A model generated the notes under the pieces. It did no database searches, was not told the DNA's origin, and saw nothing but the letters and a program-made list of their open reading frames with translations. The position numbers and the translations under genes were made by a program. Of a stretch of 64,000 nt of DNA, positions 1 through 54,298 are shown piece after piece (within the stretch, counting starts at the first letter, position 1; every line of letters starts with the position of its first letter). The stretch is from an uncultured Chloroflexia bacterium (lineage in GTDB: Bacteria > Chloroflexota > Limnocylindria > Limnocylindrales > CSP1-4): positions 160,240 to 224,239 of the forward strand of contig CAVUAG010000016.1 in assembly GCA_963739365.1 (NCBI GenBank), written 5' to 3'.

Positions 1-864
1 GTGGCGGGCGAGCGCCTCGGGGCCCAGCTTCGCGGGCGAACGCTCCTCCGAGCGCGTGTGGATGAGCCACGTCCGATCGAAGAGGTCGAACGGCGGGATC
101 AGCCCCACCTGGTCGAGGTTCGCCTTCCAGTACGCCTCGATGGTGCCGACGTCCCGCCAGTAGCCCTCGAACCGGTGGCCGAAGACCCGGGCTCCGCCGG
201 CCAGCATGGCCGGGATCACGTCGTGCCCGAAGTCGCTCCGCTCGGCCGACAGCCAGGCATGGAGGGCGCGCCGGGAGAAGACGTACACGCCCATCGAGGC
301 GAGGTCGCTCCTGGGCTCGGCGGGCTTCTCCTCCCAGTCGACCACCCGCCCATCGCTGTCGAGCTCGCAGATCCCCATCCGCGTCGCCTCGCCCGGGGGC
401 ACCGGGAGCACCGCGATCGTCACGTCGGCGTCGTTCGCCTGGTGGGCCGCGACCATCACCCGGTAGTCCATCTTGTAGACGTGGTCGCCGCTGAGGATGA
501 GGACCGTGTCTGCGCCGCTCTGGTCGATCTCGTGGAGGTTGTAGCGGACCGCATCCGCCGTGCCCAGGTACCAGCCGCTGGTCTGGGCCGACATGTAGGG
601 TTGCAGGAGCTTGATGCCCAGGCCGCGCGGCCGGTCGAAGCCCCACGGACGTCCCGTGCCGACGTGATCGTTGAGGGAACGCGGGTTGTACTGCGTGAGG
701 ACGAGCACGTCGTCGATACCCGAGTTCGCGCAGTTGGACAGGCTGAAGTCGATGAGCCGGAACTTGCCGCCGAAGGGAACGGCCGGCTTGGAGCGGATCA
801 TCGACAGGATGGAGAGCCGCTCGCCGGCGCCGCCCGCCAGCACGACCGCGAGGACGTTGCCCAT
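1..864 (-). CDS. glgC: glucose-1-phosphate adenylyltransferase (N-terminal 288 codons; C-terminus runs off the left edge)
   Basis: Own reverse-strand translation from ATG (rc of 862-864): MGNVLAVVLAGGAGERLSILSMIRSKPAVPFGGKFRLIDFSLSNCANSGI...GWYLGTADAVRYNL...ILSGDHVYKMDY. These are canonical GlgC N-terminal motifs. Missing from the ORF track because the frame never closes in the window. Confidence 0.9.
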   Translation of the reverse strand, partial: MGNVLAVVLAGGAGERLSILSMIRSKPAVPFGGKFRLIDFSLSNCANSGIDDVLVLTQYNPRSLNDHVGTGRPWGFDRPRGLGIKLLQPYMSAQTSGWYLGTADAVRYNLHEIDQSGADTVLILSGDHVYKMDYRVMVAAHQANDADVTIAVLPVPPGEATRMGICELDSDGRVVDWEEKPAEPRSDLASMGVYVFSRRALHAWLSAERSDFGHDVIPAMLAGGARVFGHRFEGYWRDVGTIEAYWKANLDQVGLIPPFDLFDRTWLIHTRSEERSPAKLGPEALARH

Positions 865-7161: not shown

Positions 7162-7183
7162 GGGTTCCGGTGGAGGTGACAAC

Positions 7184-8149: not shown

Positions 8150-8197
8150 GGCGCGGCGCGTTCGACCATCCTCTACGGCGCAGCCCTCGGGCACTCT

Positions 8198-8310
8198 CAG
8201 CAGCCTGGCTGCTGGGAATAACGCCGTCACGCTCGGGAACTGCGCCCAACCGCGGCTTCCGCGGACTCCGTACGCACGAAGCGCGCGAATTCTCAGCAGC
8301 GCAGCTGCTG
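8198..8310. repeat. two copies of a 17-nt palindrome CAGCAGC-N3-GCTGCTG, 96 nt apart
   Basis: 8198-8214 is CAGCAGCctgGCTGCTG and 8294-8310 is CAGCAGCgcaGCTGCTG. Both are preceded by TCT and followed by G. They lie between the convergent thrB and hydrolase genes. Confidence 0.6.
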
Positions 8311-8392
8311 GACATGCCTGACGGCGACGGTCGCCCCTCACGTTCGCCCCGTCAAGCTCGCCCCCGAGCTCACGCCCCCGCTCGGCGCGCGG

Positions 8393-40494: not shown

Positions 40495-40582
40495 GATCCC
40501 GGCTCCACCACGCTCCGCGGCCCCGCCGCCCGCCGCCCGCCGCCCGCCGCCCGCCGCCCCGACGCCCGCCGCCCGCCGCCCC
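40495..40582. repeat. (CCCGCCG)n-type C-rich microsatellite
   Basis: ccgccgcccgccgcccgccgcccgccgcccgccgccccgacgcccgccgcccgccgcccc. The minus strand is G3-4/N3-4 periodic. Confidence 0.7.
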
Positions 40583-40586
40583 GACG

Positions 40587-40734
40587 CCCCGACGCCACGG
40601 TCCATGCAAGGATTCCGCCTCGACCACGCTCCGTTCGGTGCTCAGGCCGCCGCCGAGGCCCGAATCGCGCACCAAGCGGAGCGTGGTGAGTCGCTGAACC
40701 TTTCATGGACTCGGGCCAGGGCGCGTCGGACGGG
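40587..40734 (+). repeat. long-hairpin repeat, copy B
   Basis: CCCCGACGCCACGGTCCATGCAAGGATTCCGCCTCGACCACGCTCCGTTCGGTGC...GCACCAAGCGGAGCGTGGTGAG...GAACCTTTCATGGACTCGGGCCAGGGCGCGTCGGACGGG. Confidence 0.8.
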
Positions 40735-40865
40735 CCCGCGGCGCCCCGTCCGCACGCTCACCCGGTGGCTCGCCGGCGATGAGTGAGCGGTAAGTGAGCG
40801 TCCGCACCATGTGCAGATGGGTACGCAGTCGAGCCCTGCCCGCGAGATCGAACGACGCCTCGACG

Positions 40866-41012
40866 CCCCGACGGCACGGTCCATGCAAGGATTCCGGCTC
40901 GACCACGCTCCGTTCGGTGCTCAGGCCGTCGTCGAAGCCGGATTCGCGCACCAAGCGGAGCGTGGTGAGCCCCGAACCTTTCATGGACTCGGACCGGGGC
41001 GCGTCGGACGAG
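40866..41012 (+). repeat. long-hairpin repeat, copy C
   Basis: Near-identical to copy B. Part of the ~280-bp tandem duplication 40583-41142. Confidence 0.8.
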
Positions 41013-41091
41013 GCCCCGCGGCGCCCCGTCCGGCACGCTCACCCGGTGGCTCGCCGGCGATGAGTGAGCGGTAAGTGAGCGTCCGCACCAT

Positions 41092-41910
41092 GTGCAGATG
41101 GGTACGCAGTCGAGCCCTGCCCGCGAGATCGAACGACGCCTCAGTTCCGCCATTGCCGCCGCGGTCGTCCGCGGGCGAGCCGAGCTCGGCTGGTCGAAGG
41201 CCGAGGTGGCGCGACGGGCCGGCGTTTCGGCGGCCACCATGACGCGCATCGAGGCCGGATCCGGAGAGCATGTCGGCCTCCGGGCAGTCTGCGCGGTTCT
41301 CGAAGCCCTGGGCACCGATGCCCGCCTGTTCCTCGATGGTCCGACAGTCCTGGCGGATCGCTCCCAGGACGACGCTGTTCACGCCCGGCTGTGCGGCCAT
41401 CTTGCCGGACGTCTGTCGGCGTTGGGCTGGGAGCCCGCGCTGGAGGTCGAGGTCGGTGAGGGGCGCATCCGAGGCTTCGTCGATGTCATGGCATTTCGAC
41501 CGGTTGACCGAGCCGTGATCTGCGACGAGACGAAGTCCGAGGTTCACGACGCCGGCGCAATCGTCAGGACGCTGCGCTGGTATGCCAACCACGCGTGGGA
41601 TGCGGCGCGAGGCCTCGGGTGGAAGCCCGCCCGCGTCGTTCCGATCCTGACTGTGCTCGACTCTGCCGATGTTGCGGCGCGCCTTCGCGAGAACCGGACG
41701 CTCATGGACGCTGCGTTCCCGGTCCGAGCCGCTGAGCTGCAGGCGTGGATCGAGGATCATCAGGCTCCGCTGGCCGGGGGCTTCGGCCTCGCGGCGCTCG
41801 ATCCGGCAAGTCGGCGACACGCGTGGCTCAGGGCAACTGCCGTTGACGCGCGGCGGGTCGTGCCGCCGTATCGCAACTACGCGGACTTCGCCAACCGCGG
41901 GCGGCGGTGA
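41092..41910 (+). CDS. XRE-type HTH protein with C-terminal PD-(D/E)xK-like domain (paralog 2)
   Basis: Track ORF 41092..41910. HTH: GRAELGWSKAEVARRAGVSAATMTRIEAGSGEHVGLRAVCAVLEAL. Core: GRIRGFVDVMAFRPVDRAVICDETKSEV. Alignable by eye with the 23944-24855 protein. Confidence 0.75.
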   Translation: MQMGTQSSPAREIERRLSSAIAAAVVRGRAELGWSKAEVARRAGVSAATMTRIEAGSGEHVGLRAVCAVLEALGTDARLFLDGPTVLADRSQDDAVHARLCGHLAGRLSALGWEPALEVEVGEGRIRGFVDVMAFRPVDRAVICDETKSEVHDAGAIVRTLRWYANHAWDAARGLGWKPARVVPILTVLDSADVAARLRENRTLMDAAFPVRAAELQAWIEDHQAPLAGGFGLAALDPASRRHAWLRATAVDARRVVPPYRNYADFANRGRR

Positions 41911-42076
41911 GCCGGTCCGGATCGGCGCGAGGAGCCGAGCCACCGGGCCTGATCGGATGCGGCTCTGCGGGGGTCGCGGTGTCGGCTGAGACCTCGATGA
42001 CCCACAGCACCGGCTCAATGCGATTGGCGTCCACGACCGCCCGTCGCTCCGCGGACCCGACGGCCGCCGCCCGCCG

Positions 42077-42224
42077 CCCCGACGGCACGGTCCATGCAAG
42101 GATTTCGTCTCGACCACGCTCCGTTCGGTGCTCAGGCCGCCGTTGAGGCCCGATCCGCGCACCAAGCGGAGCGTGGTGAGCCGTAGAACCTTTCATGGAC
42201 TCGGACCGGGCGCGTCGGACGGGC
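42077..42224 (+). repeat. long-hairpin repeat, copy D
   Basis: CCCCGACGGCACGGTCCATGCAAGGATTTCGTCTCGACCACGCTCCGTTCGGTGC...GCACCAAGCGGAGCGTGGTGAGCCGTAGAACCTTTCATGGACTCGGACCGGGCGCGTCGGACGGG. Confidence 0.8.
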
Positions 42225-43630: not shown

Positions 43631-45670
43631 GTGCGATACTCGGCCCGATGGCCGAGCAGCCCCCGGGAGCCGCCCCGCTCCCCGCCGACACCCCGTCAGG
43701 TTCCCGCCGATCCCGCCCCGCTCCTCTCCAACGCCGAGCTGGCGGCGATCTTCCACGAGATCGGCAGCCTCCTCGAGATCAAGGGCGAGCTCGTCTTCAA
43801 GACCGTCGCCTACCACCGGGCCGCCGACGCGATCGGTCACAGCCCGCACGAGATCGCCCGCGCGTACCGCGAGGGCCACCCGCCCGCGATCCCGGGCGTG
43901 GGCTCCGCGATCTCCGACAAGATCGCGGAGCTGGCAGCCACGGGGCATCTCCGCTTCCTCGACCGGCTCCACGGCGAGGTGCCGCCGACCCTCGTCGAGC
44001 TCCTCGAGGTGCCGGGCGTCGGGCCGAAGACTGTGCGGCTGCTCTGGGAGCGGCTGGGGATCGAGACGCTCGACGACCTGCGAACGGGTCTCCGGGCAGG
44101 CACGATCCGGGGGGTGCCGGGGCTCTCCGAGAAGGGGCTCGTGGCACTGGCGGCGGGCGTGGAGGCAGTCGATCGCCGATCGACGCGGATGACCCTGGGG
44201 ACTGCCGAGCGGATCATCGAAGGTGTGGCGGCGTGGCTCGTCGACGTCCCGGGCGTGCTGCGCGTCGAGCCGGCAGGCTCCTTCCGGCGCCGGCGCGACA
44301 CGATCGGCGACCTGGACCTCCTCGTGGAGACGGACGACGCGCAGGCGGTCATCGAACGCTTCACGACGCTGCCGGCGGTGGAGTCGGTCGTGAACGCCGG
44401 CCCGCACAAGGCTGCCGTCAGGCTGGCCGGAGGGCCCCAGGTGGACCTGATGGTCATGCCGCCCGCGTCGTGCGGGACGTATCTCGTGCACTTCACGGGA
44501 AGCAAGGAGCACAACGTCCTGCTGCGGGGGATCGCCCGCGACCGGGGCTGGAGCCTGTCTGAGAAGGGCTTCGCGCGGCTGGGCGACGATGGCGAGATCG
44601 CGACGGGTCCGGACGCGGAGCTGCGGACGTTCGCCAGTGAGGCCGAGGTCTACGCGTTCCTGGGGCTGGCCGAGATCCCGCCGGAGCTGCGCGAGGGCAC
44701 GGGTGAGGTGGAGGCGGCCCGCGACGGCAGCCTGCCGCGGCTGGTGGAGCTGGCCGACCTGCGCGGCGACTGCCACGCCCACTCTGACTGGTCCGATGGG
44801 ATCCACACGATCGAGCAGATGGCAGGAGCTGCGCGCGCCCGCGGTTACGGTTACCTCGTGCTGACGGATCACTCGCACGGCCTCGCCATCGCGCGGGGGC
44901 TGACACCGGAGCGGGTCGCGGCCCAGCGCGGCATCATCGCCGAGCTCAACGCGCGCTTCGCTCGGGAGGAGGAAGCCGGGACCGCCCCGTCGTCGACCCC
45001 GCCTGGCGGCTTCCGACTCCTGCACGGCTGCGAGCTGGAGGTCCGCGGCGACGGCTCGCTCGACTTCGACGACGACCTGCTCGCCTCGTTCGACGTTGTC
45101 GTGGCCGCGCTCCACCAGGGGCGGCGCCAGTCGCGCGCCCAGCTCACGGCCCGGGTGCTCGGCGCGATCGCGAGCCCCCATGTGGACGTCATTGCGCACC
45201 CGGCCGGTCGGATGCTGGGGGAGCGATCGCGCGACGACCTCGACCTTGCCTGGGACGCGATCTTCGCTGCGGCCGCGGCCACGGGAACGCTCCTCGAGAT
45301 CGACGGTTCTGACCATCGGCTCGACCTCGCCCCGGAGCGAGCACGCCGGGCGGTGGCCGCGGGCTGCCTGCTCACGATCGACTCGGACGCGCATCGGACC
45401 GAGGAGCTGGCCGGGATCGGCTGGGGGGTCGCGCAGGCACGGCGGGCGTGGGTGGAGCCCTCGGTCGTGGCCAACACGTGGTCCCGGGCGGATCTCCTGG
45501 CCTGGGTCGCGGGGAAGCCGGCGCGGATCGCGGCGACCGCGGAACGCGGCGAACCGGCGACCGCGGAACGCGGCGAACCGGCGACCGCGGAACGCGGCGA
45601 ACCGGCGACCGCGGAACGCGGCGCGTCGCCAGCCCGGCCCGCCCCGGCAGCACCGCAGAACGCCGCATGA
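43631..45670 (+). CDS. polX: family X DNA polymerase with C-terminal PHP domain (start uncertain)
   Basis: Track ORF 43631..45670: LSNAELAAIFHEIGSLLEIKGE...IPGVGSAISDKI...VPGVGPKTVRLLW...AGSFRRRRDTIGDLDLLV...; PHP: LRGDCHAHSDWSDG...LVLTDHS. An alternative leaderless ATG at 43648 (GATACT, then 7 nt) is in another frame and would need an early +1 shift. Confidence 0.88.
   Translation: MRYSARWPSSPREPPRSPPTPRQVPADPAPLLSNAELAAIFHEIGSLLEIKGELVFKTVAYHRAADAIGHSPHEIARAYREGHPPAIPGVGSAISDKIAELAATGHLRFLDRLHGEVPPTLVELLEVPGVGPKTVRLLWERLGIETLDDLRTGLRAGTIRGVPGLSEKGLVALAAGVEAVDRRSTRMTLGTAERIIEGVAAWLVDVPGVLRVEPAGSFRRRRDTIGDLDLLVETDDAQAVIERFTTLPAVESVVNAGPHKAAVRLAGGPQVDLMVMPPASCGTYLVHFTGSKEHNVLLRGIARDRGWSLSEKGFARLGDDGEIATGPDAELRTFASEAEVYAFLGLAEIPPELREGTGEVEAARDGSLPRLVELADLRGDCHAHSDWSDGIHTIEQMAGAARARGYGYLVLTDHSHGLAIARGLTPERVAAQRGIIAELNARFAREEEAGTAPSSTPPGGFRLLHGCELEVRGDGSLDFDDDLLASFDVVVAALHQGRRQSRAQLTARVLGAIASPHVDVIAHPAGRMLGERSRDDLDLAWDAIFAAAAATGTLLEIDGSDHRLDLAPERARRAVAAGCLLTIDSDAHRTEELAGIGWGVAQARRAWVEPSVVANTWSRADLLAWVAGKPARIAATAERGEPATAERGEPATAERGEPATAERGASPARPAPAAPQNAA
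45533..45622 (+). repeat. 24-bp tandem repeat, 3.75 copies, coding (ATAERGEP)n in the PolX tail
   Basis: GCGACCGCGGAACGCGGCGAACCG at 45533, 45557 and 45581, with a partial copy at 45605. Confidence 0.85.
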
Positions 45671-46734
45671 GCCGCATGCCGCGCCTGCGCAATCCGCTCC
45701 ACCGTGCCCCGCCCCCGCTCGCGACCGGGGCGCCCGGGCACCCGCTGCCCCCTACCCCCCGGCGCACGGGGAGGACGCCGGCTCCCGGGCCGGCGCTCCA
45801 CGGGGCGCCCGGCCGGCCGCTGGGGTCGCCCTCGGCGGGAGCGGGCTCCGACACGGGGGCGACCGTCCGTGCGGGGAGCCTCGGCCGGTTCGGCGCGACG
45901 CGCATGTCGAGCGGTGACCCCGCCTGGGAGCTCGTCATCGTCGGCGTCACCCTCGCCGCCATCGGCCGCCTTGCGGAGGGCCCGGCGCTCTGGGTCGCGG
46001 CGTTCGTGGCTGGCCTCGCGCTGGGCCTCGCCGCCCTCGAGATCCTGGGCACTGTCGACCCGCCGCCGGGCGTCGCCGACCTCGGCGTCCCGGTGGAGGC
46101 GCTGCTCGTGCCCGCGGCGACGGGGATCGCATCGGTCGTGGGCATCCACGTCGTCCCCGTCGGGCTCCTGCTCGTGCCCGCCCTCGTCGCCGTCGGATCT
46201 CTGATCGCGTCGTCGATCGCGATCGAGCGGCGGATCCTCGCCCGCCCCAGCGGGCCGACGGCGGCGGACCGGACGGCCCTGCTCGGCCTCGTCATGCTCG
46301 TCGCCTTCGTGGCCTTCACCGGGATCGCCGCCGCCATCCCGGGCGCCCTCGTGGAGCCGCCTCCGACCGGCGTCGAGACGCCCGTCACCGGGCTCCCGCT
46401 CGAGGGCCTGGCCCTGCTCGCCGCGCTCGACGGCCTCGTGGCCGGGATCCTGGGCTACCGACTGGCGGCTCTCCAGGGTCCCACCCTCCGCCGCGCGCTC
46501 GGGGCCGCCCTGTCGTACGCGGCGGTGATCGCCATCGCGGCTGCGGCGCTGCGCGCCATGGCCCTGCCGCGACTGGTGGGCCCTGCGCTCCTGACGCTCG
46601 TGTTCTACCTATGGAGTGCCTACCGCGCCGTTCCGCGCGGCACGAGGCGCGACCCGCGCTGGATCTGGGAGGTCCTCCTGCTCGTGGCGCTGGGTCTGGT
46701 CGTCGTGCTCTGGAACCTGCTGGCCCACGGCTGA
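45667..46734 (+). CDS. polytopic membrane protein, unknown function
   Basis: Within track ORF 45448..46734. ATG 45667 overlaps the polX stop (ATGA); alternative start ATG 45904. Many hydrophobic spans (WELVIVGVTLAAIG..., LLGLVMLVAFVAFTGIAAAIPG..., WEVLLLVALGLVVVLWNLL). Confidence 0.65.
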   Translation: MSRMPRLRNPLHRAPPPLATGAPGHPLPPTPRRTGRTPAPGPALHGAPGRPLGSPSAGAGSDTGATVRAGSLGRFGATRMSSGDPAWELVIVGVTLAAIGRLAEGPALWVAAFVAGLALGLAALEILGTVDPPPGVADLGVPVEALLVPAATGIASVVGIHVVPVGLLLVPALVAVGSLIASSIAIERRILARPSGPTAADRTALLGLVMLVAFVAFTGIAAAIPGALVEPPPTGVETPVTGLPLEGLALLAALDGLVAGILGYRLAALQGPTLRRALGAALSYAAVIAIAAAALRAMALPRLVGPALLTLVFYLWSAYRAVPRGTRRDPRWIWEVLLLVALGLVVVLWNLLAHG

Positions 46735-46823
46735 CGGGGGCGCACAATAGGCGACCGCGTCGCGGGCGTTTGACGTCGGCGCCCCCGGACAGCCCCGGTC
46801 CCCCGCCCCCGACCCGCGGCCGG

Positions 46824-46958
46824 CCCCGACACGGTCCGTGAAAGGAATCCCGGTGGAGCACGCTCCGTTCGATGCCCCGAATGCCGCCGGGACCCGAATC
46901 GGTCCCCGAGCGCAGGGCGGTCGGAGCGGAATCCTTCCATGGAGTCGGCCGTGTCGGG
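46824..46958 (+). repeat. long-hairpin repeat, copy E (most diverged)
   Basis: CCCCGACACGGTCCGTGAAAGGAATCCCGGTGGAGCACGCTCCGTTCG...GGAATCCTTCCATGGAGTCGGCCGTGTCGGG. Flanked by 34-nt direct repeats at 46750-46783 and 46982-47015. Confidence 0.75.
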
Positions 46959-47001
46959 CTCGCCACGGACGTTGGGATGCAGGCAACCGCGTCGCGGGCG
47001 T

Positions 47002-47030
47002 TTGACGGCGGCGCGCCTCGGGTGTACAAA
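47002..47030 (+). promoter_or_regulatory. promoter upstream of the TPR gene
   Basis: TTGACG 47002-47007, 17-nt spacer, TACAAA 47025-47030. The -35 lies inside the right-hand direct repeat. Confidence 0.5.
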
Positions 47031-47056
47031 CGTCAGTCGCGCACCTCGTCCGCAGT

Positions 47057-47959
47057 TTGATCCGGCGTGCCCAGCGCCGACCCGAAAGGACTCGTCCTCC
47101 CGTGACCTTCCCCGAGCTCGAGCAGACGGCGCCGAGCGCCCCCAGTCTCTCCCGGATCAAGCGGACGTTGACCGAGCAGGCGATCGCCGCGGCGACCGCC
47201 GCCTCCTGGGAGGAAGCGGCCGAGATCAACCGGAAGCTCATCGAGTACGGGCCCGAGGCCGAGGCCGAGAACCGCCTCGCCAAGGCGCTCTGGGAGATGG
47301 GCGACCTTGGCGGCGCCCGCGAGCACTACCAGAAGGCGCTGGCGCTCGATCCCACCAGCCGGATCGCCGAGCGCAACATCGATCGCCTCAAGCTCCTGAT
47401 GGTCGAGGCCGGCGACCGCACGGTGGCGGCCGACCCGACGAGCAAGGCGCCCGTCTCCATCTTCGTCGAGGAGACCGGCAAGACCGGCTTCGCGCACCTC
47501 ATGGAGCTCGCACGCCCGAAGGTCCTGGCCCAGGTGAACCCGGGCGACGCCGTCGAGCTCGTGGCCGAGGGCAAGCACCTCATCGCGTTCTCGAACGGGA
47601 TCCGGGTCGGCGTGGTGGAGCCCAGGGTCGCCGCGCGCCTCCTGAAGCTCGTGGCCAACGGCAACAAGTACGCGGCCGGCGTGACCTCGCTCGGGGCGCA
47701 GGACGTCCGGATCATCATCCGCGAGATCTACCAGGATCCGCGCAACTACGGCAAGGTGAGCTTCCCGACGGCCGCCCGGTCCGGCGACCTCCGCCCGTAC
47801 ACGAAGGGCACCCTCCTGCGCGAGGACGAGGACCTCGAGGAGGACCTCGAGGACGACATCGAGGACGAGGAGATCGAGGACCTCGATCGCGTCATCCCCG
47901 CCGAGGTCACCCCTGACGAGGCCTTCGAGGAGGAGACGGACGAGCTCGACGAGCCGTAG
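47057..47959 (+). CDS. TPR-containing protein with a beta-rich middle domain and acidic tail
   Basis: Track ORF 47057..47959 (TTG start; GTG 47102 is an alternative). TPR-like: WEEAAEINRKLIEYGPEAEAENRLAKALWEMGDLGGAREHYQKALALDP. Then VNPGDAVELVAEGKHLIAFSNGIRVGVVEPRVAARLLKLVANGNKYAAGV. Tail: EDEDLEEDLEDDIEDEEIEDLD. Confidence 0.65.
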   Translation: MIRRAQRRPERTRPPVTFPELEQTAPSAPSLSRIKRTLTEQAIAAATAASWEEAAEINRKLIEYGPEAEAENRLAKALWEMGDLGGAREHYQKALALDPTSRIAERNIDRLKLLMVEAGDRTVAADPTSKAPVSIFVEETGKTGFAHLMELARPKVLAQVNPGDAVELVAEGKHLIAFSNGIRVGVVEPRVAARLLKLVANGNKYAAGVTSLGAQDVRIIIREIYQDPRNYGKVSFPTAARSGDLRPYTKGTLLREDEDLEEDLEDDIEDEEIEDLDRVIPAEVTPDEAFEEETDELDEP

Positions 47960-48034
47960 TCCGAACGGCCGGCGCCCGACGCGCCGCTGGCCGGAGCGGA
48001 GCCGCGGGCCCGTGCGCCGTGCGAATCCTCTCCC

Positions 48035-50857
48035 ATGACACCCCGGGACATCGCGGGTCGACCCGCCGAGCCGCTCTCGCTCCCGATCTTCTCGCGGCTC
48101 GCCCCCGCCCTGCCCGCGGACCTGATCGCGGCCCGGATCGAGGCTGCCACCGCCCCTGACGACGTCGTCATCGACCTGTTCGGGCGCGGCGGCTGGGTGG
48201 CGCGCACGGCGCTCGCGCTCGGCCGGCGGGCCATCTCCCTTGAGACGTCGCCTCTCAGCCGCCTCCTCGCCGACGTGGTCGTCCGGGCGCCGGACCTGCG
48301 CCATCTCGATGCCGCATTCCAGGCGGTGGCCGCTGCGCCCCTCGGGACGTCGAGCCTGCGGGCGTGGATCGACGAACGGTTCGCGACGGCCTGCCCGACG
48401 TGCGGCCGGACGCTCGCCCTCGAGGAGCTGGTCTGGGAGCCGGCCGACGGCCGGACGGGGCGCGTGGCGGGCGGTCGGACGGGGCGCGGCGCCGCCGGAC
48501 CGGCCAACGCAGTGACGGGCACGACCGCCGGCGCGCTGCGGCCGACCCGGCGCTCCTTCCGCTGCCCGGCCTGCCTCGACCGGCGCGGTCGGGGCGGCGA
48601 GCTACGGCACGCGGCGCCGGAGGAGGCCGACCTCGCTCTCGCGACGGCGCTTGACGACGATCCTGTGGCGCGCGAGGAGATTGCTCGCCGCTTCCCGCTC
48701 CGGGACGATCCCGGCGGCCTGCTCGAGCAGCTGCTCGACCTGCACTCGTCGCGCCAGCTCGGAGCCCTCCAGGCGATCCTCGCCCGGATCGAGGGTGAGC
48801 TGCGGGCTTCCCAGGTGACGTCGGCCCTCCGTCTCGCCCTGGTCCATGCCATCCTCCCGTCGAGCCGCCTCACCGGGTACCCCGGCAGGGCCAGCGCGCT
48901 GCGCATCGCCGACGGCCGGGTCCGCCCGTCAGGGGCGCCCGGATGGCGCGAGCGCAACCCCTGGCGCGCCTTCGAGGAGGGCTACCAGCTGGTGCGGGCC
49001 TTCGTGCAGGCGCTCGACGACGGCCCGTACGGGGCCGTGCAGGCTCGCCTCACCGAGCCCCTCGAGGGCCTCCTCGACGGTCCGCCGATGATCGCCCTGC
49101 GGGTCGGCGGGGGCGATGCCCTCGAGCGGCTCGGTGCCGAGGCCGAGGCGCTCACGGCCGCCCAGCGCGCGCGGGTCCGCCTCGTGCTGTCACAGCCACT
49201 CCCCGAATGGACCCCGGGCCGCCTCGCCGAAGCGTTCGTGGTCACTGCCTGGGGGCTCGGCAGCGAGGCGGCGCGCCTCGTGCCCTATGCGTCGCTCCTC
49301 GACCGCGAGGCCCGGCCCCCGAGCCGCGCAGGTGCATTGCGGGCTGCCCTCGACGCGGTGGCCCCGGCGATGGGACCGGACGGCACGGGCGTGGTCCTCC
49401 TGGACGCCGACGGGGCACCCGGCCTCGTGGCCACGGGCCTGGCGGGCGCGACTGCCGGCTGGCGCGTGGCGGGAGCCCGGCTGGCGGAGCCCGGCCGGCT
49501 GCCGGGCGGCATCGCGGAGATGGTCCCCCCCGGCGGCCGCCTGGGCGCGGCGCCCCGGACGCGGGCCAACCGCACCCTGGCCCCGGCTCCGGGCGGGGTC
49601 GGCGACCCGGCGGTTGTCACGGCGCGTGGCGTCTTCGGCGGTCCGGTCCCGATCGACGGGCGCTTCTCCCTCTCGGAGCTCAACCGGGTGGTCACCGAGA
49701 CGGCGGTGGCTGCGCTCCAGGCCCGGGGCGAGCCGGCCGACGGCCAGCATCTCATCGGGGAGCTGCTCGTGGCCCTGGATCGGAGCGGGCAGCTGCGGCG
49801 CTTCGCCGTCGCCGCGGCCCGCCACGCAGAGAGCGCCGCAGCGGAGCGTGGCGTGGCCGAGAGCGCCGCCGACGAGCGTGCTGCCGCGGGGTCGCTGGGC
49901 GACGCGCTCGCGCTCGGCGACGCGATGGGCCGCGTGCCCGACGCCCCCGCGAGCGACGCGGGCGATCCCACGAACCGCGCCGCGACCGAGCTCCTGGCGC
50001 TCATCGAGGGCGAGCTCGGGCGGCCCGACCAGCGCAGGATCGCCCCATCCGAGGGCGGTCGCTACTGGCTGCGCGACCCGCGCGACGAGGCCGAGGCGGC
50101 GGTGCCGCTTTCCGACCGGCTGGAGTGGGCCGTGTACAGCCTGCTCGGGACCGGGGCCTCGGTTCCGGAAGCGGCCGTGCGCGCACGCGTCGAGGAGATG
50201 TTCCTGGGTCCCGACGCCCCCGACCCGTGGCTGGTGGACGCCTGCCTGGCGAGCTACGGCGTGCCCGCCCCGGGCGATGGGCGGCTCGTCGCCCGCGACG
50301 ATCTCCAGGCCCGAACCCATGAGCACGCGGCGACGATCGGTCTCCTGGCCGACCTGGGACACCGCCTGGGCGTCCATGTCTACATCTCCCCACGCGAGCA
50401 GGGCCGGCGCGCCGGGGCCGGGCCGCTGGGCGCCAGACTCCTTCCCGACGAGCGCGACCCGGTCCTCGGCTTCCTCGGCCGCTCGGGTGCGGATGCGCTG
50501 GAGCAGGTGGACTGCTGCTGGTACGTGCGGCCCCGTTTCGCCTTCCTGTTCGAGGTGGAGTGGACCGCGATGCTCGGCGAGCCGGTCCTGCGCCGCGGAC
50601 GCGGAATCCAGGCGGACGAGCGGATCGTTCGCTTCCTCGTGCTCCCCGCGGAACGGGTGGAGCTGCTGCGGAGCAAGCTCGAGCACTCCCCGGTCCTTCG
50701 CGCGGCCATGGCCACCGGCAATTGGCACGTGCTGCGGATGGACGCCCTGGACCGCTTCGCAGCCCGGCCGAGCCCGGCCCTCGGCGAGCTGGAGCCGTAC
50801 CTCGGCCTGGACCCGGTGGCGGACCGCCCCGACCAGCTGCCCCTGTTCGAGGCCTGA
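48035..50857 (+). CDS. 940-aa conserved-looking hypothetical protein (degenerate MTase-like N-terminus, CxxC...CxxC ribbon, nuclease-like C-terminus)
   Basis: Track ORF 48035..50857, uninterrupted. DVVIDLFGRGGWVARTALALGRRAISLETSP resembles the FxGxG/GR..IG.E block of N4/N6 DNA methylases. CPTCGR...FRCPACL. C-terminus: LEQVDCCWYVRPRFAFLFEVEWTAMLGEPVLRR...IVRFLVLPAERV. I saw no NPPY/DPPY-type motif and no Walker A. Confidence 0.6.
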   Translation: MTPRDIAGRPAEPLSLPIFSRLAPALPADLIAARIEAATAPDDVVIDLFGRGGWVARTALALGRRAISLETSPLSRLLADVVVRAPDLRHLDAAFQAVAAAPLGTSSLRAWIDERFATACPTCGRTLALEELVWEPADGRTGRVAGGRTGRGAAGPANAVTGTTAGALRPTRRSFRCPACLDRRGRGGELRHAAPEEADLALATALDDDPVAREEIARRFPLRDDPGGLLEQLLDLHSSRQLGALQAILARIEGELRASQVTSALRLALVHAILPSSRLTGYPGRASALRIADGRVRPSGAPGWRERNPWRAFEEGYQLVRAFVQALDDGPYGAVQARLTEPLEGLLDGPPMIALRVGGGDALERLGAEAEALTAAQRARVRLVLSQPLPEWTPGRLAEAFVVTAWGLGSEAARLVPYASLLDREARPPSRAGALRAALDAVAPAMGPDGTGVVLLDADGAPGLVATGLAGATAGWRVAGARLAEPGRLPGGIAEMVPPGGRLGAAPRTRANRTLAPAPGGVGDPAVVTARGVFGGPVPIDGRFSLSELNRVVTETAVAALQARGEPADGQHLIGELLVALDRSGQLRRFAVAAARHAESAAAERGVAESAADERAAAGSLGDALALGDAMGRVPDAPASDAGDPTNRAATELLALIEGELGRPDQRRIAPSEGGRYWLRDPRDEAEAAVPLSDRLEWAVYSLLGTGASVPEAAVRARVEEMFLGPDAPDPWLVDACLASYGVPAPGDGRLVARDDLQARTHEHAATIGLLADLGHRLGVHVYISPREQGRRAGAGPLGARLLPDERDPVLGFLGRSGADALEQVDCCWYVRPRFAFLFEVEWTAMLGEPVLRRGRGIQADERIVRFLVLPAERVELLRSKLEHSPVLRAAMATGNWHVLRMDALDRFAARPSPALGELEPYLGLDPVADRPDQLPLFEA

Positions 50858-50886
50858 TCGGGCAGGCGTCGCACGGGCGGCGCCGG

Positions 50887-50898
50887 TACGCTACGCGC
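50887..50898 (+). promoter_or_regulatory. -10 element with leaderless geometry for DUF885 gene 1
   Basis: TACGCT 50887-50892, then 6 nt, then ATG 50899. Confidence 0.4.
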
Positions 50899-52548
50899 AT
50901 GACCACTTCCTCCGCACTTGCCGATCTCTGTGCCCGCACCTGGGAACGGACGCTCGAGCTGAACCCCACGCTGGCCACCATCTGCGGCGACGAGCGCTAC
51001 GACGACCGCCTGGACGACCCGGGTCCCGCCGGACGAAGCGCTCGCCGTGCGCTCGCGGAAGAGGCCCGCGCCGGCGCGCTGGCCCTCGACCCGGCCGACC
51101 TCGACGAAGAGGAGCGGATCTCGCGGGATCTCCTGGCCCTCATCGCCGGGCAGGAGATTGCCGATCACGACCTGCGCGACGACCTGATCGGCGCGGTCGG
51201 CCAGCAGGGCCACCAGTCGCTCCTGCCGCACCTCGTCCAGCTCCAGCGGGTCGACACGCCCGAGCGGTTCGATCGGCTCCTTGCCCGCATCGAGGCCTAC
51301 CCGGCCCTGACCGACGCGGTGATCGACCTGCTGGACGAAGGACGTTCGGCCGGTCTGACGGTCGCCCGCGTGGTGGCGGACCGGGTCGTCCACCAGGTGG
51401 AGCGGCTCCTGGCCGGCTCCGCGGCCGCCTCGCCGGTCGTCACCGTGCCGGCGCTCGCGGACGAGGCCGACCGGACCCGCCTCCTCGACGCGGTCGAACG
51501 GCACGTGCGCCCGGCCGACGCGCGCTATCTCGAGGCGCTGCGGGACTACCTCCCGGCCACCCGCGAGGAGCCCGGCCTCTGCGCGCTGCCCGACGGCGAC
51601 GCCCGCTACGCGGCGAAGGTGCGCGCCTACACGAGCCTGGACGTCAGCCCGGCCGAGCTGCACCGGGTCGGCCTCGAGGAGCTCGAGGGGATCGAGGCGG
51701 AGCGGCGGGCGATCGCCGGCGCCGCCGGCTTCGGCGACGACACGGCCGCCTACCGGAGGGCGATGAACGCCGACCCGGCGCAGATCCCGGCGACCCCCGA
51801 GGCGCTGGTTGCGCGCTGCCAGGAGGACGTCGAGCGGGCGCTCGTTGCGGCCCCGCGCTGGTTCTCGCGCCTGCCGCAGACGAGCTGCGAGGTCCGCCGT
51901 GTCGAGCCGCTCCTCGAGAAGGACGCTCCGGGGGCCTACTACTACCCGCCTACGCTCGACGGCTCGCGACCCGGCATCTATTTCGTGAACGCCTACGACC
52001 TGCCCAGCCGGACCTACTGGACGGCGGCATCGACCACCTACCACGAGGCCATCCCCGGGCATCACTTCCAGCTGGCCCTCGAGATGGAGCTGACGGGGCT
52101 CCCCGCCTTCCGGACCCTGGGCTACTGGCCGCAGGGCACGGCGTACGTGGAGGGCTGGGCGCTCTACACGGAGCGGGTCGCCGACGAGGCGGGCCTCTTC
52201 CGGAGCGAGGCCGAGCGGTTCGGCATGCTGGACAGCCAGGCCCTGCGGGCGGTCCGCCTGGTCGTGGACACCGGCCTGCACGCCTTTGGCTGGAGCCGGG
52301 AGAAGGCCTTCGAAACGATGGTCGCGGCGGGGATCCACCCGACCGATGCCTCGATCGAGACCGACCGCTACATTGCCTGGCCCGGCCAGGCCCTGGCCTA
52401 CATGACCGGCCGCCGCGAGATCGAGCAGCTGAGACGGGAGCGGACGGCCCGCGAGGGCGGGGCCTTCGACATCCGGCTCTTCCACGACGACGTCCTGCGC
52501 CACGGCAAGCTCCCGCTGCGCATCCTGCGCGACGTCGTGCTGGCCTGA
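50899..52548 (+). CDS. DUF885 family protein (metallopeptidase-like), paralog 1
   Basis: Within track ORF 50560..52548, from MTTSSALADL. TTYHEAIPGHHFQLAL...AYVEGWALYTERV...ETDRYIAWPGQALAYMTG. Confidence 0.85.
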   Translation: MTTSSALADLCARTWERTLELNPTLATICGDERYDDRLDDPGPAGRSARRALAEEARAGALALDPADLDEEERISRDLLALIAGQEIADHDLRDDLIGAVGQQGHQSLLPHLVQLQRVDTPERFDRLLARIEAYPALTDAVIDLLDEGRSAGLTVARVVADRVVHQVERLLAGSAAASPVVTVPALADEADRTRLLDAVERHVRPADARYLEALRDYLPATREEPGLCALPDGDARYAAKVRAYTSLDVSPAELHRVGLEELEGIEAERRAIAGAAGFGDDTAAYRRAMNADPAQIPATPEALVARCQEDVERALVAAPRWFSRLPQTSCEVRRVEPLLEKDAPGAYYYPPTLDGSRPGIYFVNAYDLPSRTYWTAASTTYHEAIPGHHFQLALEMELTGLPAFRTLGYWPQGTAYVEGWALYTERVADEAGLFRSEAERFGMLDSQALRAVRLVVDTGLHAFGWSREKAFETMVAAGIHPTDASIETDRYIAWPGQALAYMTGRREIEQLRRERTAREGGAFDIRLFHDDVLRHGKLPLRILRDVVLA

Positions 52549-52591
52549 ACCGCCCGCCCTGCCTCACCACCCCGCCCGCCGCTCGTCCGTC

Positions 52592-54298
52592 ATGGAGGAC
52601 CTGATGACGCCGCCCGACCACGCCGCTGCCGTCAACGCGCTCGCCGACCGCTTCTGGGAGGTGGTCCTGGAGGAGTCGCCCCTCACGGCGACGGTCTACG
52701 GCGACGACCGCTACGACGATCGCCTGCCGGACATCTCCGCCACGGGACGGGCAAAGGCCCGCGCCCACCGCGAGGCGGCGCTCGTCGAGCTCGCCGCGAT
52801 CCCGGTCGACGACCTCCCGACGGAGGAGCGGATCACCCACGACATGCTGCGGGTCGTGTGCGAGCTCGGGATCCGCGCCGACGACCTGCGGATGGACGTC
52901 ATCGCCAGCGTCGACCAGATGGACGGGCCGCAGGCCCTGCTTCCCCAGCTGGTGCAGATCCAGCGGGCGGACACGCCAGACCGGCTGGAGAAGCTGCTGG
53001 CCCGCTACGCGGCGTTCCCGACATACATCGACGCCGCCATCGCGATCATGGAGGAGGGCCGGGCCGACGGGAGCACCGCCGCCCGGCTCGTGGCGGATCG
53101 CGTGATCGCCCAGACGGAGCGGCTCCTCGGAGCTCCCGTCGCCGAGTCCGCGCCCGTCCGGCTCCCGCAGCTCGACCCCGCCGCCGAGGCCGAGGGCCGG
53201 GCCCGCCTGGAGGCCGCGGTGGGGCGCGACGTCCGGCCTGCGCTCGTCCGCTATCTGGAGGCGGTGCGGGGCCCGTACCTGGCCGCGACGCGCGACGAGC
53301 CCGGGCTCTGGTCCGCGCCCCGCGGCGAGGAGCGCTACCGGGCGGCCATCCTCCAGTGGACGACGCTCGACCTCGACCCGGCCGAGATCCACGAGGTCGG
53401 CCTCGCGGAGCTCGCGGCGATCCAGGATGAGCAGCGCGCCATCGCCCGGGCGGCGGGCTTCGGCGAGGACATCGACGCCTACCGTTCAGCGCTCCACGCC
53501 GACCCGTCCAACCGGGTCGCGACGAAGGCCGAGCTCGTGGCCCGCGCCACCGAGGACATCGGGCGGGCCCATGCGCAGGCGCCGCGTGCCTTTGGGCGCC
53601 TTCCCCGCGCCGCCTGCGAGGTGCGGGCGGTGGAAGAGTTCCTGGAGGCGGACGCGCCGTTCGCCTTCTACTATCCTCCGGCGCTCGACGGGTCGCGCCC
53701 CGGGATCTACTTCGTGAACGCCGGCGACCTGCCGAGCCGGTACCTCTCGAACCTCGCGACCACGACCTACCACGAGGCCGTCCCGGGCCATCACTTCCAG
53801 ATCACCCTGGAGATGGAGCACCCTTCGCTGCCCGCGTTCCGGCGTCTCGGCTCGCGGGCCGTCGGGTCCGCCTACGCGGAGGGCTGGGGCCTCTACTCGG
53901 AGCGTCTCGCCGACGAGCTGGGCCTCTACCGGAACGAGGGGGAGCGCTTCGGGATGCTGGGTGGCCAGGCGTGGCGGGCCGCCCGGCTCGTCGTTGACAC
54001 CGGGATCCACGCGCTCCGCAAGGATCGCGAATGGGGCGTGGACGTGCTCCGCCGAGCGGGGCTGACGGAGACCGATGCAGCCATCGAGACCGACCGCTAC
54101 GTCGTGTGGCCCGGTCAGGCGCTGACCTACAAGGTCGGCCAGCGCCAGATCGAGCGACTGCGTGCGGAGCTGACCGCGCGCGACGGCGCCGGGTTCGACC
54201 TCCGCGAGTTCCACGACGCGCTGCTGGGCCACGGGTCGCTGCCGCTGGCCACGCTCGCGCGCGAGGTGCCGCGCTGGGTTGCGCCGAGGGCGGAGTAG
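52592..54298 (+). CDS. DUF885 family protein, paralog 2
   Basis: Track ORF 52592..54298: TTYHEAVPGHHFQITL...AYAEGWGLYSERL...ETDRYVVWPGQALTYKVG. Confidence 0.85.
   Translation: MEDLMTPPDHAAAVNALADRFWEVVLEESPLTATVYGDDRYDDRLPDISATGRAKARAHREAALVELAAIPVDDLPTEERITHDMLRVVCELGIRADDLRMDVIASVDQMDGPQALLPQLVQIQRADTPDRLEKLLARYAAFPTYIDAAIAIMEEGRADGSTAARLVADRVIAQTERLLGAPVAESAPVRLPQLDPAAEAEGRARLEAAVGRDVRPALVRYLEAVRGPYLAATRDEPGLWSAPRGEERYRAAILQWTTLDLDPAEIHEVGLAELAAIQDEQRAIARAAGFGEDIDAYRSALHADPSNRVATKAELVARATEDIGRAHAQAPRAFGRLPRAACEVRAVEEFLEADAPFAFYYPPALDGSRPGIYFVNAGDLPSRYLSNLATTTYHEAVPGHHFQITLEMEHPSLPAFRRLGSRAVGSAYAEGWGLYSERLADELGLYRNEGERFGMLGGQAWRAARLVVDTGIHALRKDREWGVDVLRRAGLTETDAAIETDRYVVWPGQALTYKVGQRQIERLRAELTARDGAGFDLREFHDALLGHGSLPLATLAREVPRWVAPRAE

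Follow-up and report, generated by a model that had tools for sequence, protein, structure and literature searches.

What do two adjacent genes of an uncultured Chloroflexia bacterium (GTDB lineage Bacteria; Chloroflexota; Limnocylindria; Limnocylindrales; CSP1-4) encode, and do they form a nucleic-acid-targeting or defence-type module, as the earlier note on this DNA had suggested? The window is the whole 64,000-nt stretch analysed here (assembly GCA_963739365.1, contig CAVUAG010000016.1, positions 160,240-224,239 of the forward strand); coordinates are positions in it, and the region studied is 47002..50857. Two open reading frames lie there on the + strand, 47057..47959 (300 aa, TTG start) and 48035..50857 (940 aa, ATG start), corresponding to genes A and B in the following list.

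43631..45670, + strand: PolX, a family X DNA polymerase with PHP domain (Pfam DNA_pol_B_thumb, HHH_8, PHP); conserved neighbour
45700..46734, + strand: predicted membrane protein, start approximate (open reading frame; no Pfam family matched); syntenic in L038-L041, conserved neighbour
46755..46775, no strand: direct repeat copy 1, 21 nt with TTGACG at its end (identical 21 nt at 46987-47007)
46777..46986, no strand: insertion of about 200 bp with a copy of a dispersed ~130-nt repeat family
46987..47007, no strand: direct repeat copy 2, containing a -35-like TTGACG (47002-47007; sequence read)
47002..47030, + strand: weak promoter-like TTGACG, 17 nt, TACAAA (sequence read)
47102..47959, + strand: gene A, 285 aa (alternative TTG start at 47057, 300 aa)
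47138..47410, + strand: A, TPR domain, residues 13-103 of the 285-aa protein (Pfam TPR_1/TPR_2 over cut-off)
47453..47731, + strand: A, HIRAN-like beta domain, residues ~118-210 (Foldseek on AF2 model)
47789..47956, + strand: A, disordered poly-acidic tail, residues 230-285 (pLDDT below 50)
48035..50857, + strand: gene B, 940 aa (open reading frame; AF2 model)
48053..49540, + strand: B, class I SAM-methyltransferase fold with large insertions, residues 7-502 (VIA; motif IV dead)
48383..48577, + strand: B, four-Cys zinc ribbon (C120, C123, C177, C180) around disordered loop 143-164
49670..50293, + strand: B, helical linker plus helix/hairpin units, residues 546-753 (model secondary structure; disordered loop 612-644)
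50297..50779, + strand: B, NmeDI_C-type restriction-nuclease-like domain, residues 755-915 (D826, E840, E842)
50834..50848, + strand: B, C-terminal QLPLF (Q934-F938), beta-clamp-binding-motif-like
50899..52548, + strand: DUF885 protein, first of two tandem paralogues (Pfam DUF885, E 5e-151); syntenic neighbour

Both genes of the earlier note are real, with one correction: A more likely begins at GTG 47102 than at TTG 47057, because the gene call on record (P0123) gives a protein of 285 aa, the same as most homologues; AAGGA stands 11 nt upstream of this GTG. B is uninterrupted, as claimed, and its M1 is nearly invariant in the homologue alignment; the assembly has a second copy on a different contig, split over three frames. 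The description of the pair as promoter-equipped was not confirmed: a sigma-70 consensus scan of 45600..51200 returned 0 sites, and what stands there is TTGACG and, 17 nt on, TACAAA (47025-47030), whose last base is not the T demanded by the scan. The insertion between the two direct repeats is missing in the syntenic C23 copy, where it corresponds to a gap between blastn pieces, and its ~130-nt repeat has 11 matches in the genome, including the window at ~40557-42204.

Gene B: methyltransferase fold, nuclease-like domain and C-terminal peptide

The AF2 model of B (pLDDT 89.2, pTM 0.87) has a methyltransferase part for which VIA, whose fold rows for B spanned residues 7-502 only, gave aTrm11 (5e72_A; Z 16.4, rmsd 3.4, 175 aligned, model range 7..498), with many further methylases at Z 13-16. 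At the sequence level the signal points to DNA amino-methylases (PF01555, CcrM, MboIIA): Pfam N6_N4_Mtase scores 19.4 bits, below its threshold of 26.7 (E 1.1e-3; residues 26-72 on profile positions 166-212), covering motif I only, and PADLOC MTase_II gives a partial match (E 7e-6), likewise confined to the motif I stretch. The degenerate methyltransferase-like block noticed earlier is thus borne out, as is the absence of (D/N)PP(Y/F) from the window's B, where the motif IV position reads SQPLP. Homologues have S/G-Q-P-(L/P), SPPP, RPPY and similar at this position, with D or N in 0 of 70 aligned rows and DPPR in one of 22 aligned representatives (P0332); the motif I pattern and [DNS]PP[YFWH] occur together in none of the best 150 representatives. 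Motif I itself still reads D-L-F-G-R-G-G, followed by an acidic residue ending strand 2 (E70), in the window's own family, which on this sequence pattern could bind SAM; in most lineages the glycine loop is lost. Given the loss of the motif IV catalytic D/N/S and aromatic residue, and in most lineages of that loop as well, B most likely does not methylate.

What is kept in B lies elsewhere. The four cysteines of the ribbon, which the earlier note had picked out and whose strands in the model are residues 126-136 and 168-175, are invariant in 70/70 aligned homologues, together with R219, R240, E306, W310 and W406, and a conserved large insertion occupies the position of the target-recognition domain in DNA methylases. 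The helix/hairpin units that follow the methyltransferase fold in the model may be winged helices.

There is a very slim chance, in our estimate, that B is an RNA-directed housekeeping enzyme, either a tRNA/rRNA methylase or an RNA-binding nuclease. Its top fold matches are indeed tRNA/rRNA methylases (aTrm11, TrmI, Trm14, TrmN, RlmL, and RsmD, Z 14-16), and it is a core gene with a conserved insertion domain, but many methylases that act on small molecules or proteins score equally well, so that the match is one to a generic fold, from which no confident tRNA/rRNA methylase assignment emerged. The DNA amino-methylase signal, the missing catalytic motif, the restriction-nuclease-type domain and the clamp-type tail all stand against an RNA enzyme.

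The nuclease-like domain is tied to a named family through homologues: of the 120 listed for B, 38 carry a record of PF27126 (NmeDI_C, a domain named after the C-terminus of a type II restriction enzyme); the Atlas scores for this part of B are 0.87/0.86/0.85. The PD-(D/E)xK-like D...ExE pattern proposed earlier is found as D826...E840-V-E842 and is kept in the long forms of 836-940 aa. Foldseek with this domain gave no PD-(D/E)xK or other match at E<=1e-3, its weak rows (E 0.03-0.6) being MspJI, EndoMS, Nt.BspD6I, Bax1 and R2 protein, and a profile search of PDB sequences returned nothing. From its motif the domain may cut DNA. Cutting cannot, however, be the universal function of the family, as the triad is degenerate in several lineages (H..AxQ in f16, E-V-V in f2, and Q/K-V-E in f3/f5) and also in all short forms of ~750-810 aa.

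The extreme C-terminal peptide is conserved in the family as (D/E)Q(L/M)xLF, and QLPLF of the window's B fits the beta-clamp consensus QLxLF (PMC2705854). The pattern Q[LMIVT]x[LMIF][FLMW] occurs within the last 14 residues of 36/43 and 69/91 family representatives, as compared to 15/6700 internal control windows. Residues 896-940 were co-folded with two DnaN chains encoded by the same genome, in three runs and with 3 controls, giving 0.59 (runs 0.59, 0.61, and 0.51) against 0.00 for the best control; the runs share at least 50% of contacts and partner pLDDT is at least 38. This passes a mark that is reached by 116/157 solved complexes and 2/215 mismatched pairs, in a range (0.60 or under) that holds 18 of those 157 solved complexes plus both passing mismatches. 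The outcome lends weak support to docking of the tail on the beta sliding clamp. Clamp-peptide complexes have already been solved structurally, so the pass may merely reflect likeness to them, and the tail could bind some other partner.

It is conceivable, though we think it unlikely, that B, like other non-enzymatic clamp ligands, is a catalytically inert scaffold or regulator at the clamp whose enzyme-derived domains only bind DNA or protein: the methylase motifs are dead throughout, and the triad is lost in the short and in some long forms while the C-terminal motif, zinc ribbon and insertion residues are kept. Yet conservation of D826 and E842 reaches 90% or more in the alignments, and E840-x-E842 is kept in the 836-940 aa forms, the window's B included, which argues for selection on catalysis in the window's lineage.

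Relatives of gene B and gene A among known systems

Single-chain proteins of ~830-900 aa that join an N6_N4 DNA methylase to NmeDI_C share domain order and length class with B; to our knowledge, none has been characterised. Their Atlas clusters, named ‘D12 class N6 adenine-specific DNA methyltransferase/DNA methylase/Type...’ and occurring in Bacteroidota, Methanobacteriota and others, are the nearest named ones by language-model features (score 0.96, 221/256 features shared, and 0.94). Between 93 and 100% of their members pass Pfam N6_N4_Mtase, whereas B stays below threshold and its motif IV is without D/N/S and the aromatic residue. Bacillota fusions named ‘restriction endonuclease’ (Atlas 0.92) likewise combine an amino-methylase with a PD-(D/E)xK nuclease, but the nuclease is of a different family (Mrr_cat), the methylase is Pfam-recognised, and there is no sign of core status. 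R.NmeDI, whose C-terminal domain names PF27126, is a type II restriction endonuclease of Neisseria meningitidis (PMC2095814). It is a 351-aa stand-alone enzyme of a mobile R-M system; B, by contrast, is a 940-aa fusion whose methylase is dead and which ends in a clamp-type tail, and its gene belongs to the core.

Gene A (AF2 model, pLDDT 77.9) contains the TPRs claimed for it, TPR_2 scoring 29.7 bits against a Pfam cut-off of 27 over residues 68-100, and its TPR domain aligns with 1na3_B (VIA Z 14.2, rmsd 1.1, 85 aligned). The loose resemblance to HIRAN suggested earlier is backed by the model. By Foldseek, the best matches of the beta domain are HIRAN chains of human HLTF (4s0n, 4xzg, 5bnh, and 6kcs; E 1.3e-3 to 7.4e-3, prob 1.00, rmsd 2.5-4.1), with 4s0n_D at rank 1 (E 1.3e-3, prob 1.00) and the other HLTF chains at TM 0.54-0.61 by target over 99-115 columns; 3k2y_B was also matched, and Pfam HIRAN finds nothing in the A sequence at E<=1. 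The fold is joined in A to TPRs and a disordered acidic tail, the latter present in 28/28 aligned homologues, whereas in HLTF it is joined to a SWI/SNF ATPase. HLTF uses its HIRAN fold to bind 3' DNA ends, and A is probably a DNA-end-binding adaptor.

Distribution, gene order and function

A and B are conserved core genes that are vertically inherited. B is present in 148/151 genomes of the class (109/110 of the high-quality ones) and in 35/35 genera, and A in 240/301 genomes of the phylum. Strand and order are constant in all class genomes examined (29/29 f1 genomes and five loci of f2-f5): A immediately precedes B in 24 of the 29 f1 genomes and lies 1-3.7 kb upstream on the same strand in the remaining 5, and it is also upstream in f2, f3, f4 and f5. 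PolX lies upstream of the pair in 5/5 long loci of f1 and f4 (L034, L037-L040) and in the C23 copy; the f2, f3 and f5 loci showed no PolX gene.

Such a distribution does not support the defence half of the suggestion made earlier. That A and B form a defence or restriction module, for instance a Type IV-like, modification-dependent nuclease and its adaptor, we regard as quite improbable. Restriction-modification-type ancestry, NmeDI_C, the methylase + NmeDI_C and methylase + Mrr_cat clusters as nearest named relatives, and the partial MTase_II match would suit it. Against it stand the near-universality of B in the class, gene order conserved over all five class families, the housekeeping neighbours (PolX, the membrane protein, and DUF885) in place of defence genes, the status of A as a phylum core gene, the conserved clamp-type tail of B, and PADLOC, which matched nothing in A and motif I only in B. 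The nucleic-acid-targeting half is well supported.

The reading that we favour, at about an even chance, is that B is a domesticated methylase-nuclease fusion working as a clamp-tethered, replication- or repair-coupled DNA endonuclease and not as a restriction enzyme. B would descend vertically from a single-chain restriction-modification-type fusion of an N6/N4 DNA amino-methyltransferase with an NmeDI_C nuclease, having retained the fold and lost the motif IV residues; its C-terminal peptide would dock it on DnaN, recognition of a conserved feature in DNA would fall to the dead methylase together with the ribbon and insertion, and DNA cleavage to the C-terminal domain. A is a separate phylum-wide core protein, its HIRAN-like fold set between a peptide-binding TPR module and an acidic tail, and should A, B and PolX cooperate, a plausible order is that B incises, A captures the end and PolX fills the gap.

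NucS/EndoMS offers a parallel: this mismatch endonuclease has a PD-(D/E)xK nuclease and a C-terminal peptide that tethers it to the sliding clamp, in lineages without MutS/MutL. B may work alike, and EndoMS (5gke_A) is among the weak Foldseek rows, but B is not a member, its architecture being unrelated, and we do not claim mismatch specificity for it. MutL exceeds the cut-off in 0/34 class genomes sampled versus 258/301 overall, and MutS1 in 0/61 class genomes; NucS has one weak match in 34 f1 genomes, and PF01939 has no match in the window's genome. Homologues of B with an intact triad occur alongside MutL in families f7 and f20, so B is not simply a mismatch-repair substitute.

Whether A and B act together is a separate matter, and somewhat short of an even chance we give to their being functionally unrelated, a reading compatible with our view of B as an endonuclease. 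The pair is syntenic throughout the class, as the reading in the earlier note requires, but is not obligate: outside the class the two genes are never neighbours in the examined genomes, each is found without the other, and where both are present they are on different contigs (G161, G173, G214, and G298). Adjacency may therefore be inherited gene order, and other DNA does intervene between the genes in f3/f5 and 5 f1 genomes. A functional tie is favoured by the constant strand and order, by the short intergenic gaps (6-75 nt) of f1, f2 and f4, by the pointing of both proteins to DNA, and by RNA-library contigs from two studies that cover A and B of close relatives, of which a single 420-nt contig crosses the A-B junction, although such contigs may contain carried-over DNA and do not demonstrate a single transcript. 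B-like proteins without A occur in families f11 and f14. Across most of the phylum A occurs without B, with a MiaB/RimO-like radical SAM gene ahead of it in L049-L052 and with hisS and gyrA as its two neighbours in L047.

Architecture of the two genes

The plus strand of the locus carries two ORFs, 47057..47959 (300 aa) and 48035..50857 (940 aa), in a window of ∼73% G+C from an assembly of 2.3 Mb that is 69% complete; close homologues are labelled "Chloroflexota" and "Candidatus Limnocylindrales bacterium" in their records. The start of the first gene is most likely GTG 47102, giving 285 aa, because the recorded gene call (P0123) and most homologues have this length, and AAGGA lies 11 nt upstream. 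The principal features are:

43631..45670: PolX gene, upstream of gene A
47102..47959, + strand: gene A, 285 aa, TPR, HIRAN-like β domain, and acidic tail
48035..50857, + strand: gene B, 940 aa, degenerate methylase, four-Cys ribbon (C120, C123, C177, C180), NmeDI_C-like domain, and QLPLF tail
50899..54298: two tandem DUF885 paralogues

We consider these architectures very probably correct, and the domain guesses that the earlier note had made for both proteins proved right. The TPR of A passes the Pfam cut-offs (TPR_2, 29.7 versus 27; TPR_1, 29.3 versus 27.8), and its superhelix fold matches 1na3_B in VIA (Z 14.2, rmsd 1.1). The AF2 model of A (pLDDT 77.9, below 50 in the tail) places five helices ahead of a six-stranded domain, and its top Foldseek match is HLTF HIRAN (4s0n_D, E 1.3e-3, prob 1.00), with HLTF HIRAN chains at ranks 1–3, 6, 11, 22, and 32, and 3k2y_B at rank 18. 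A loose likeness to HIRAN had been suggested for this domain, and it is borne out at fold level only, without a sequence-level signal: Pfam HIRAN has no match in A at E ≤ 1, and solely TPR proteins are found among the 60 matches listed for a profile of A against PDB sequences. In an alignment of 28 homologues (identity down to 34%), the invariant residues fall in the TPR, the linker F..E.GK, and the β domain (G148, V151, G170, P174, G187, N188, and Y190), and every row has the acidic tail. An NCBIfam search of A and B found nothing.

The AF2 model of B, from an alignment of 70 homologues (pLDDT 89.2, pTM 0.87), contains a class I Rossmann-like SAM-methyltransferase fold, for which the best VIA match is aTrm11 (5e72_A; Z 16.4, rmsd 3.4, 175 residues aligned, model 7..498); because dozens of other methylases also score Z 13–16, we take the match to be to the generic methylase fold. 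The VIA alignments cover residues 7–502, and residues 503–940 are described by secondary structure only. Foldseek of the whole model gives nothing at E ≤ 1e-3, and a PDB sequence search with B gives no meaningful match. Pfam N6_N4_Mtase (PF01555) scores 19.4 bits versus a gathering threshold of 26.7, over residues 26–72 only (profile positions 166–212); four relatives and the short forms of B return sub-threshold N6_N4_Mtase or nothing in Pfam, and the ∼760-aa forms return nothing in NCBIfam. Another identity considered for B, that of a COG1743/DUF1156-type Zn-ribbon methylase, was dropped as unsupported by any Pfam match.

The methylase motifs are degenerate throughout the family. Motif I reads DLFGRGG in f1, the window's own genome family, one glycine out of register compared to the DPFxGSG type, and may still bind SAM there; its glycines are lost in families f2, f3, f5, f11, f16, f20, and f35; the acidic residue after strand 2 is variable. 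The motif IV position is SQPLP in B and x-P-P in the family, without a catalytic D/N/S and without an aromatic residue. D/N is found there in 0 of 70 aligned rows, the single exceptions to the x-P-P pattern being SPPP in f4, RPPY in f7, and DPPR in one of 22 aligned representatives. No member of the best 150 representatives of the family has the motif I pattern together with [DNS]PP[YFWH], and intact-motif relatives appear only as Atlas clusters.

The methylase fold is broken between strand 2/3 and strand 4 by ∼250 residues that contain the four-Cys ribbon and a helical insertion; in alpha-type DNA methylases the target-recognition domain occupies the matching position. Residues invariant in all 70 rows (R21, A94, C120, C123, W134, C177, C180, R219, R240, E306, W310, W406, E566, P567, L587, Y741, and L877) are located mainly in the ribbon and insertion. 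Since this region is conserved, unlike the recognition domains of restriction systems, we infer that it reads a constant target.

At the C-terminal end, a nuclease-like domain is indicated by PF27126, recorded for 38 of the 120 B homologues listed; in Atlas this family is NmeDI_C, "Type II restriction enzyme NmeDI C-terminal domain", and an Atlas feature search with residues 755–915 returned NmeDI_C clusters at 0.87, 0.86, and 0.85, rated by the tool as leads only. In the predicted model D826 precedes strand 827–831 and E840-V-E842 ends strand 835–841, so that acidic residues of the D...(D/E)x(K/E) type are present on adjacent strands; conservation of D826 and E842 is 90% or higher. ExE can replace ExK, as in BamHI. 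The triad D826/E840/E842 is kept in the 836–940 aa forms of B; f2, f3, f5, and f16 have it in partly altered form, and the ∼750–810 aa forms have lost it. Foldseek of the whole model also lists weak rows to PD-(D/E)xK nucleases (MspJI 4f0p_A, E 0.18; EndoMS 5gke_A, E 0.5; R2 8gh6_A, E 0.03), and a profile of the C-terminal 296 residues has no meaningful match among PDB sequences.

B ends in DQLPLFEA, with QLPLF at residues 934–938 of 940. A search of the last 14 residues for the pattern Q[LMIVT]x[LMIF][FLMW] finds it in 36 of the 43 representatives matched through to the C-terminus and in 69 of the 91 others that have at least 700 aa (105/134 overall), as compared to 15 of 6700 internal control windows; several of the misses have the motif further inward or apparently frameshifted ends. 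QLxLF is the consensus of bacterial clamp-binding motifs (PMC2705854). The motif is retained in f11 and f35, families without gene A, which argues against the TPR of A as the tail's only target. We co-folded two copies of the genome's own DnaN (28 DnaN sequences of the class aligned) with B residues 896–940, obtaining a score of 0.59 (runs 0.59, 0.61, and 0.51), with the best of three controls at 0.00, at least 50% of contacts common to the runs, and partner pLDDT of at least 38. Of 157 solved complexes, 116 attain the mark used, as do 2 of 215 mismatched pairs; passes at 0.60 or lower comprise 18 of the 157 solved complexes plus both of those mismatches. Because clamp–peptide complexes have already been solved, the pass may reflect likeness to them. 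The verdict is weak support for the docking of the tail on the beta clamp in the predicted complex.

Two short (∼750–810 aa) relatives of B, at 5858–8146 of locus L042 and 6211–8475 of locus L043, come from families nearly without gene A; they have lost the triad and the methylase motifs and kept the Zn ribbon and a C-terminal QLxL(F/L) tail.

Distribution and gene order

B is a near-universal gene of the class Limnocylindria (families f1–f5), present in 148 of 151 genomes, 109 of the 110 of high quality, and all 35 genera; the class tally of B, like the phylum tallies of A and MutL that follow, includes ten genomes flagged as unpublished, whose sequences were unused. The three genomes missing B belong to one genus of f3 (completeness 93, 77, and 80) and are empty even at E ≤ 1. 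Across the Chloroflexota, B is found in 68 of 301 genomes, with strong matches in the class and in f7, f16, f20, f23, and f36; f11 and f35, whose B is the short form, give only weak, N-terminal matches. At E ≤ 1e-3 its profile retrieves 3868 cluster representatives, a number that falls to 920 at E ≤ 1e-30. Its homologues are recorded as "hypothetical protein", with the exception of one partial entry named "site-specific DNA-methyltransferase". Gene A is distributed more widely: within the phylum, 240 of 301 genomes have it, as do 143 of 167 genera, and it is nearly absent from f11 (1/20), f14 (0/6), and f22 (1/19). A is also the more conserved of the two: compared within one and the same set of f1 genomes from outside the genus, identity is 67–78% for A versus 41–48% for B.

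Conservation of the neighbourhood, which the earlier note had proposed as a check, was found in the class loci examined. Loci are available for 29 f1 genomes; in 24 of them A immediately precedes B, and in the other five it lies on B's contig and strand, 1–3.7 kb upstream. The order A then B recurs in f2, f3, f4, and f5, and PolX is upstream of the pair in f1 and f4. Families f3 and f5 have a conserved ∼600-aa gene between A and B (L035 3907–5718, L036 3374–5143). The two ∼600-aa proteins are 33% identical, with sub-threshold SPOR as their only Pfam match, and the gene was not found in the window's genome (69% complete). Outside the class, A and B are on separate contigs in genomes G161, G173, G214, and G298, and A was not found within the non-class loci L044–L046. 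In other parts of the phylum, four of the five distinct Pfam-annotated loci (L049–L052, from four families) have a MiaB/RimO-like radical SAM methylthiotransferase gene before A; in the fifth (L047, from small-genome relatives) A is flanked by hisS and gyrA, with lexA two genes away, and L048, without Pfam annotation, has the same ORF layout.

This near-universal presence of B, the conserved synteny, and neighbours unrelated to defence speak against the defence-type module that had been suggested for the pair, as does PADLOC, which gives only partial MTase_II/oMTase matches confined to residues 25–98 of B and 0 families matched for A.

Contigs from RNA libraries (three libraries, two studies) match both genes at 90–99% identity, and one of 420 nt corresponds to 47866–48285, spanning the A–B junction; such contigs may contain DNA and are uninformative on transcription, strand, ends, or a single transcript. 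At most 0.24 of the sampled words are present in runs X1–X20, and for that reason we draw no habitat claim.

Relation to known systems and a possible role in DNA maintenance

The nearest named kind is the single-chain methylase plus NmeDI_C protein (Atlas 0.96 and 0.94), followed by methylase plus Mrr_cat "restriction endonucleases" (Atlas 0.92); B is set apart by its dead methylase motifs, by its distribution as a core gene, and probably by its clamp-type tail. Searches of the literature on Limnocylindria mismatch repair, bacterial HIRAN/tetratricopeptide proteins, NmeDI, Chloroflex clamp-binding motifs, and QLxLF endonucleases turned up no account of A or B. The mechanism we favour, though we regard the case as evenly balanced, is that B is a domesticated, clamp-tethered endonuclease with A as its HIRAN/TPR neighbour. 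If so, B would be a clear case of a restriction-modification fusion enzyme domesticated by its host into a core clamp-associated DNA-maintenance protein.

The repair-gene context of the class makes a repair role for B attractive. MutL scores over the cut-off in 258 of the 301 phylum genomes and in none of the 34 class genomes sampled, which gave 10 weak matches (E 1e-4 to 1e-6). MutS1 is over its cut-off in 0 of 61 class genomes, the ATPase part alone being matched; the class genomes sampled have a MutS-family ATPase paralogue of ∼800–900 aa, and we take this match to be a MutS2-like paralogue. NucS_C (PF01939) has no match in the window's genome, which places B outside the NucS/EndoMS family; family f1 yields a single weak match among 34 genomes, and the matches found elsewhere are short and partial. 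B may nonetheless resemble NucS/EndoMS in its way of working. The loss of base-excision glycosylases is described for the Limnocylindraceae in PMC13212565 (2026), in the consulted portion of which the words mutS and mutL are absent.

A fuller scenario, which we regard as improbable, makes clamp-tethered B the incision nuclease and sensor of an undescribed replication-coupled repair route, acting with A and PolX. The QLxLF tail would tether B to the beta clamp; the dead base-flipping-type methylase, Zn ribbon, and insertion would sense mismatches or lesions; B would make the incision, with capture of the 3′ end falling to the HIRAN protein A and gap filling to PolX. In Limnocylindria this route would stand in for MutS1–MutL and NucS, not found there. 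The simpler idea of B as a plain MutL substitute was dropped, because intact-triad B coexists with MutL in f7 and f20.

Were domestication correct, it would span a whole class in which neither MutS1 nor MutL reaches its cut-off in the sampled genomes and whose family f1 has no convincing NucS, and B would be a concrete candidate for replication fidelity in abundant freshwater, soil, and sediment bacteria, with residues and peptides that can be tested. The analysis also brings to notice a phylum-wide bacterial HIRAN protein, gene A, that seems unstudied.

Repeats and a second copy of the region

The pair had been described as promoter-equipped, the promoter in question being TTGACG (47002), a 17-nt spacer, and TACAAA; the pair is real and the promoter is the exception, a consensus scan of 45600..51200 having returned 0 promoters, along with 0 terminators. 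Upstream of gene A, 21-nt direct repeats (46755–46775 and 46987–47007) flank an insertion of ∼200 bp (46777–46986), and the TTGACG read as a −35 box is part of the duplicated 21-mer beside it. The insertion matches a dispersed repeat family of ∼130 nt with 11 matches in the genome, including the hairpin repeats at ∼40557–42204 of the window, and is missing from the syntenic copy on C23, a second contig of the same assembly.

The 3′ end of the PolX ORF (window 45560–45670) encodes, in translation, four tandem copies of an 8-residue ERGEPATA-like unit. The two DUF885 paralogues after gene B are each ∼55–60% identical to the other's orthologues, and their tandem arrangement is kept in close relatives.

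Contig C23 carries the whole region again (locus L084, C23:28000–47000 of the window's genome), in the order GGDEF–PolX–membrane protein–A–B–DUF885–DUF885–ABC2 and at 82–95% nucleotide identity; this copy could be a co-binned related strain, a duplication, or the product of assembly errors. Its B (L084 9556–12410, minus strand) is split over three frames, and the frame shifts fall in two disordered loops, at about residues 143–163 and 600–619.
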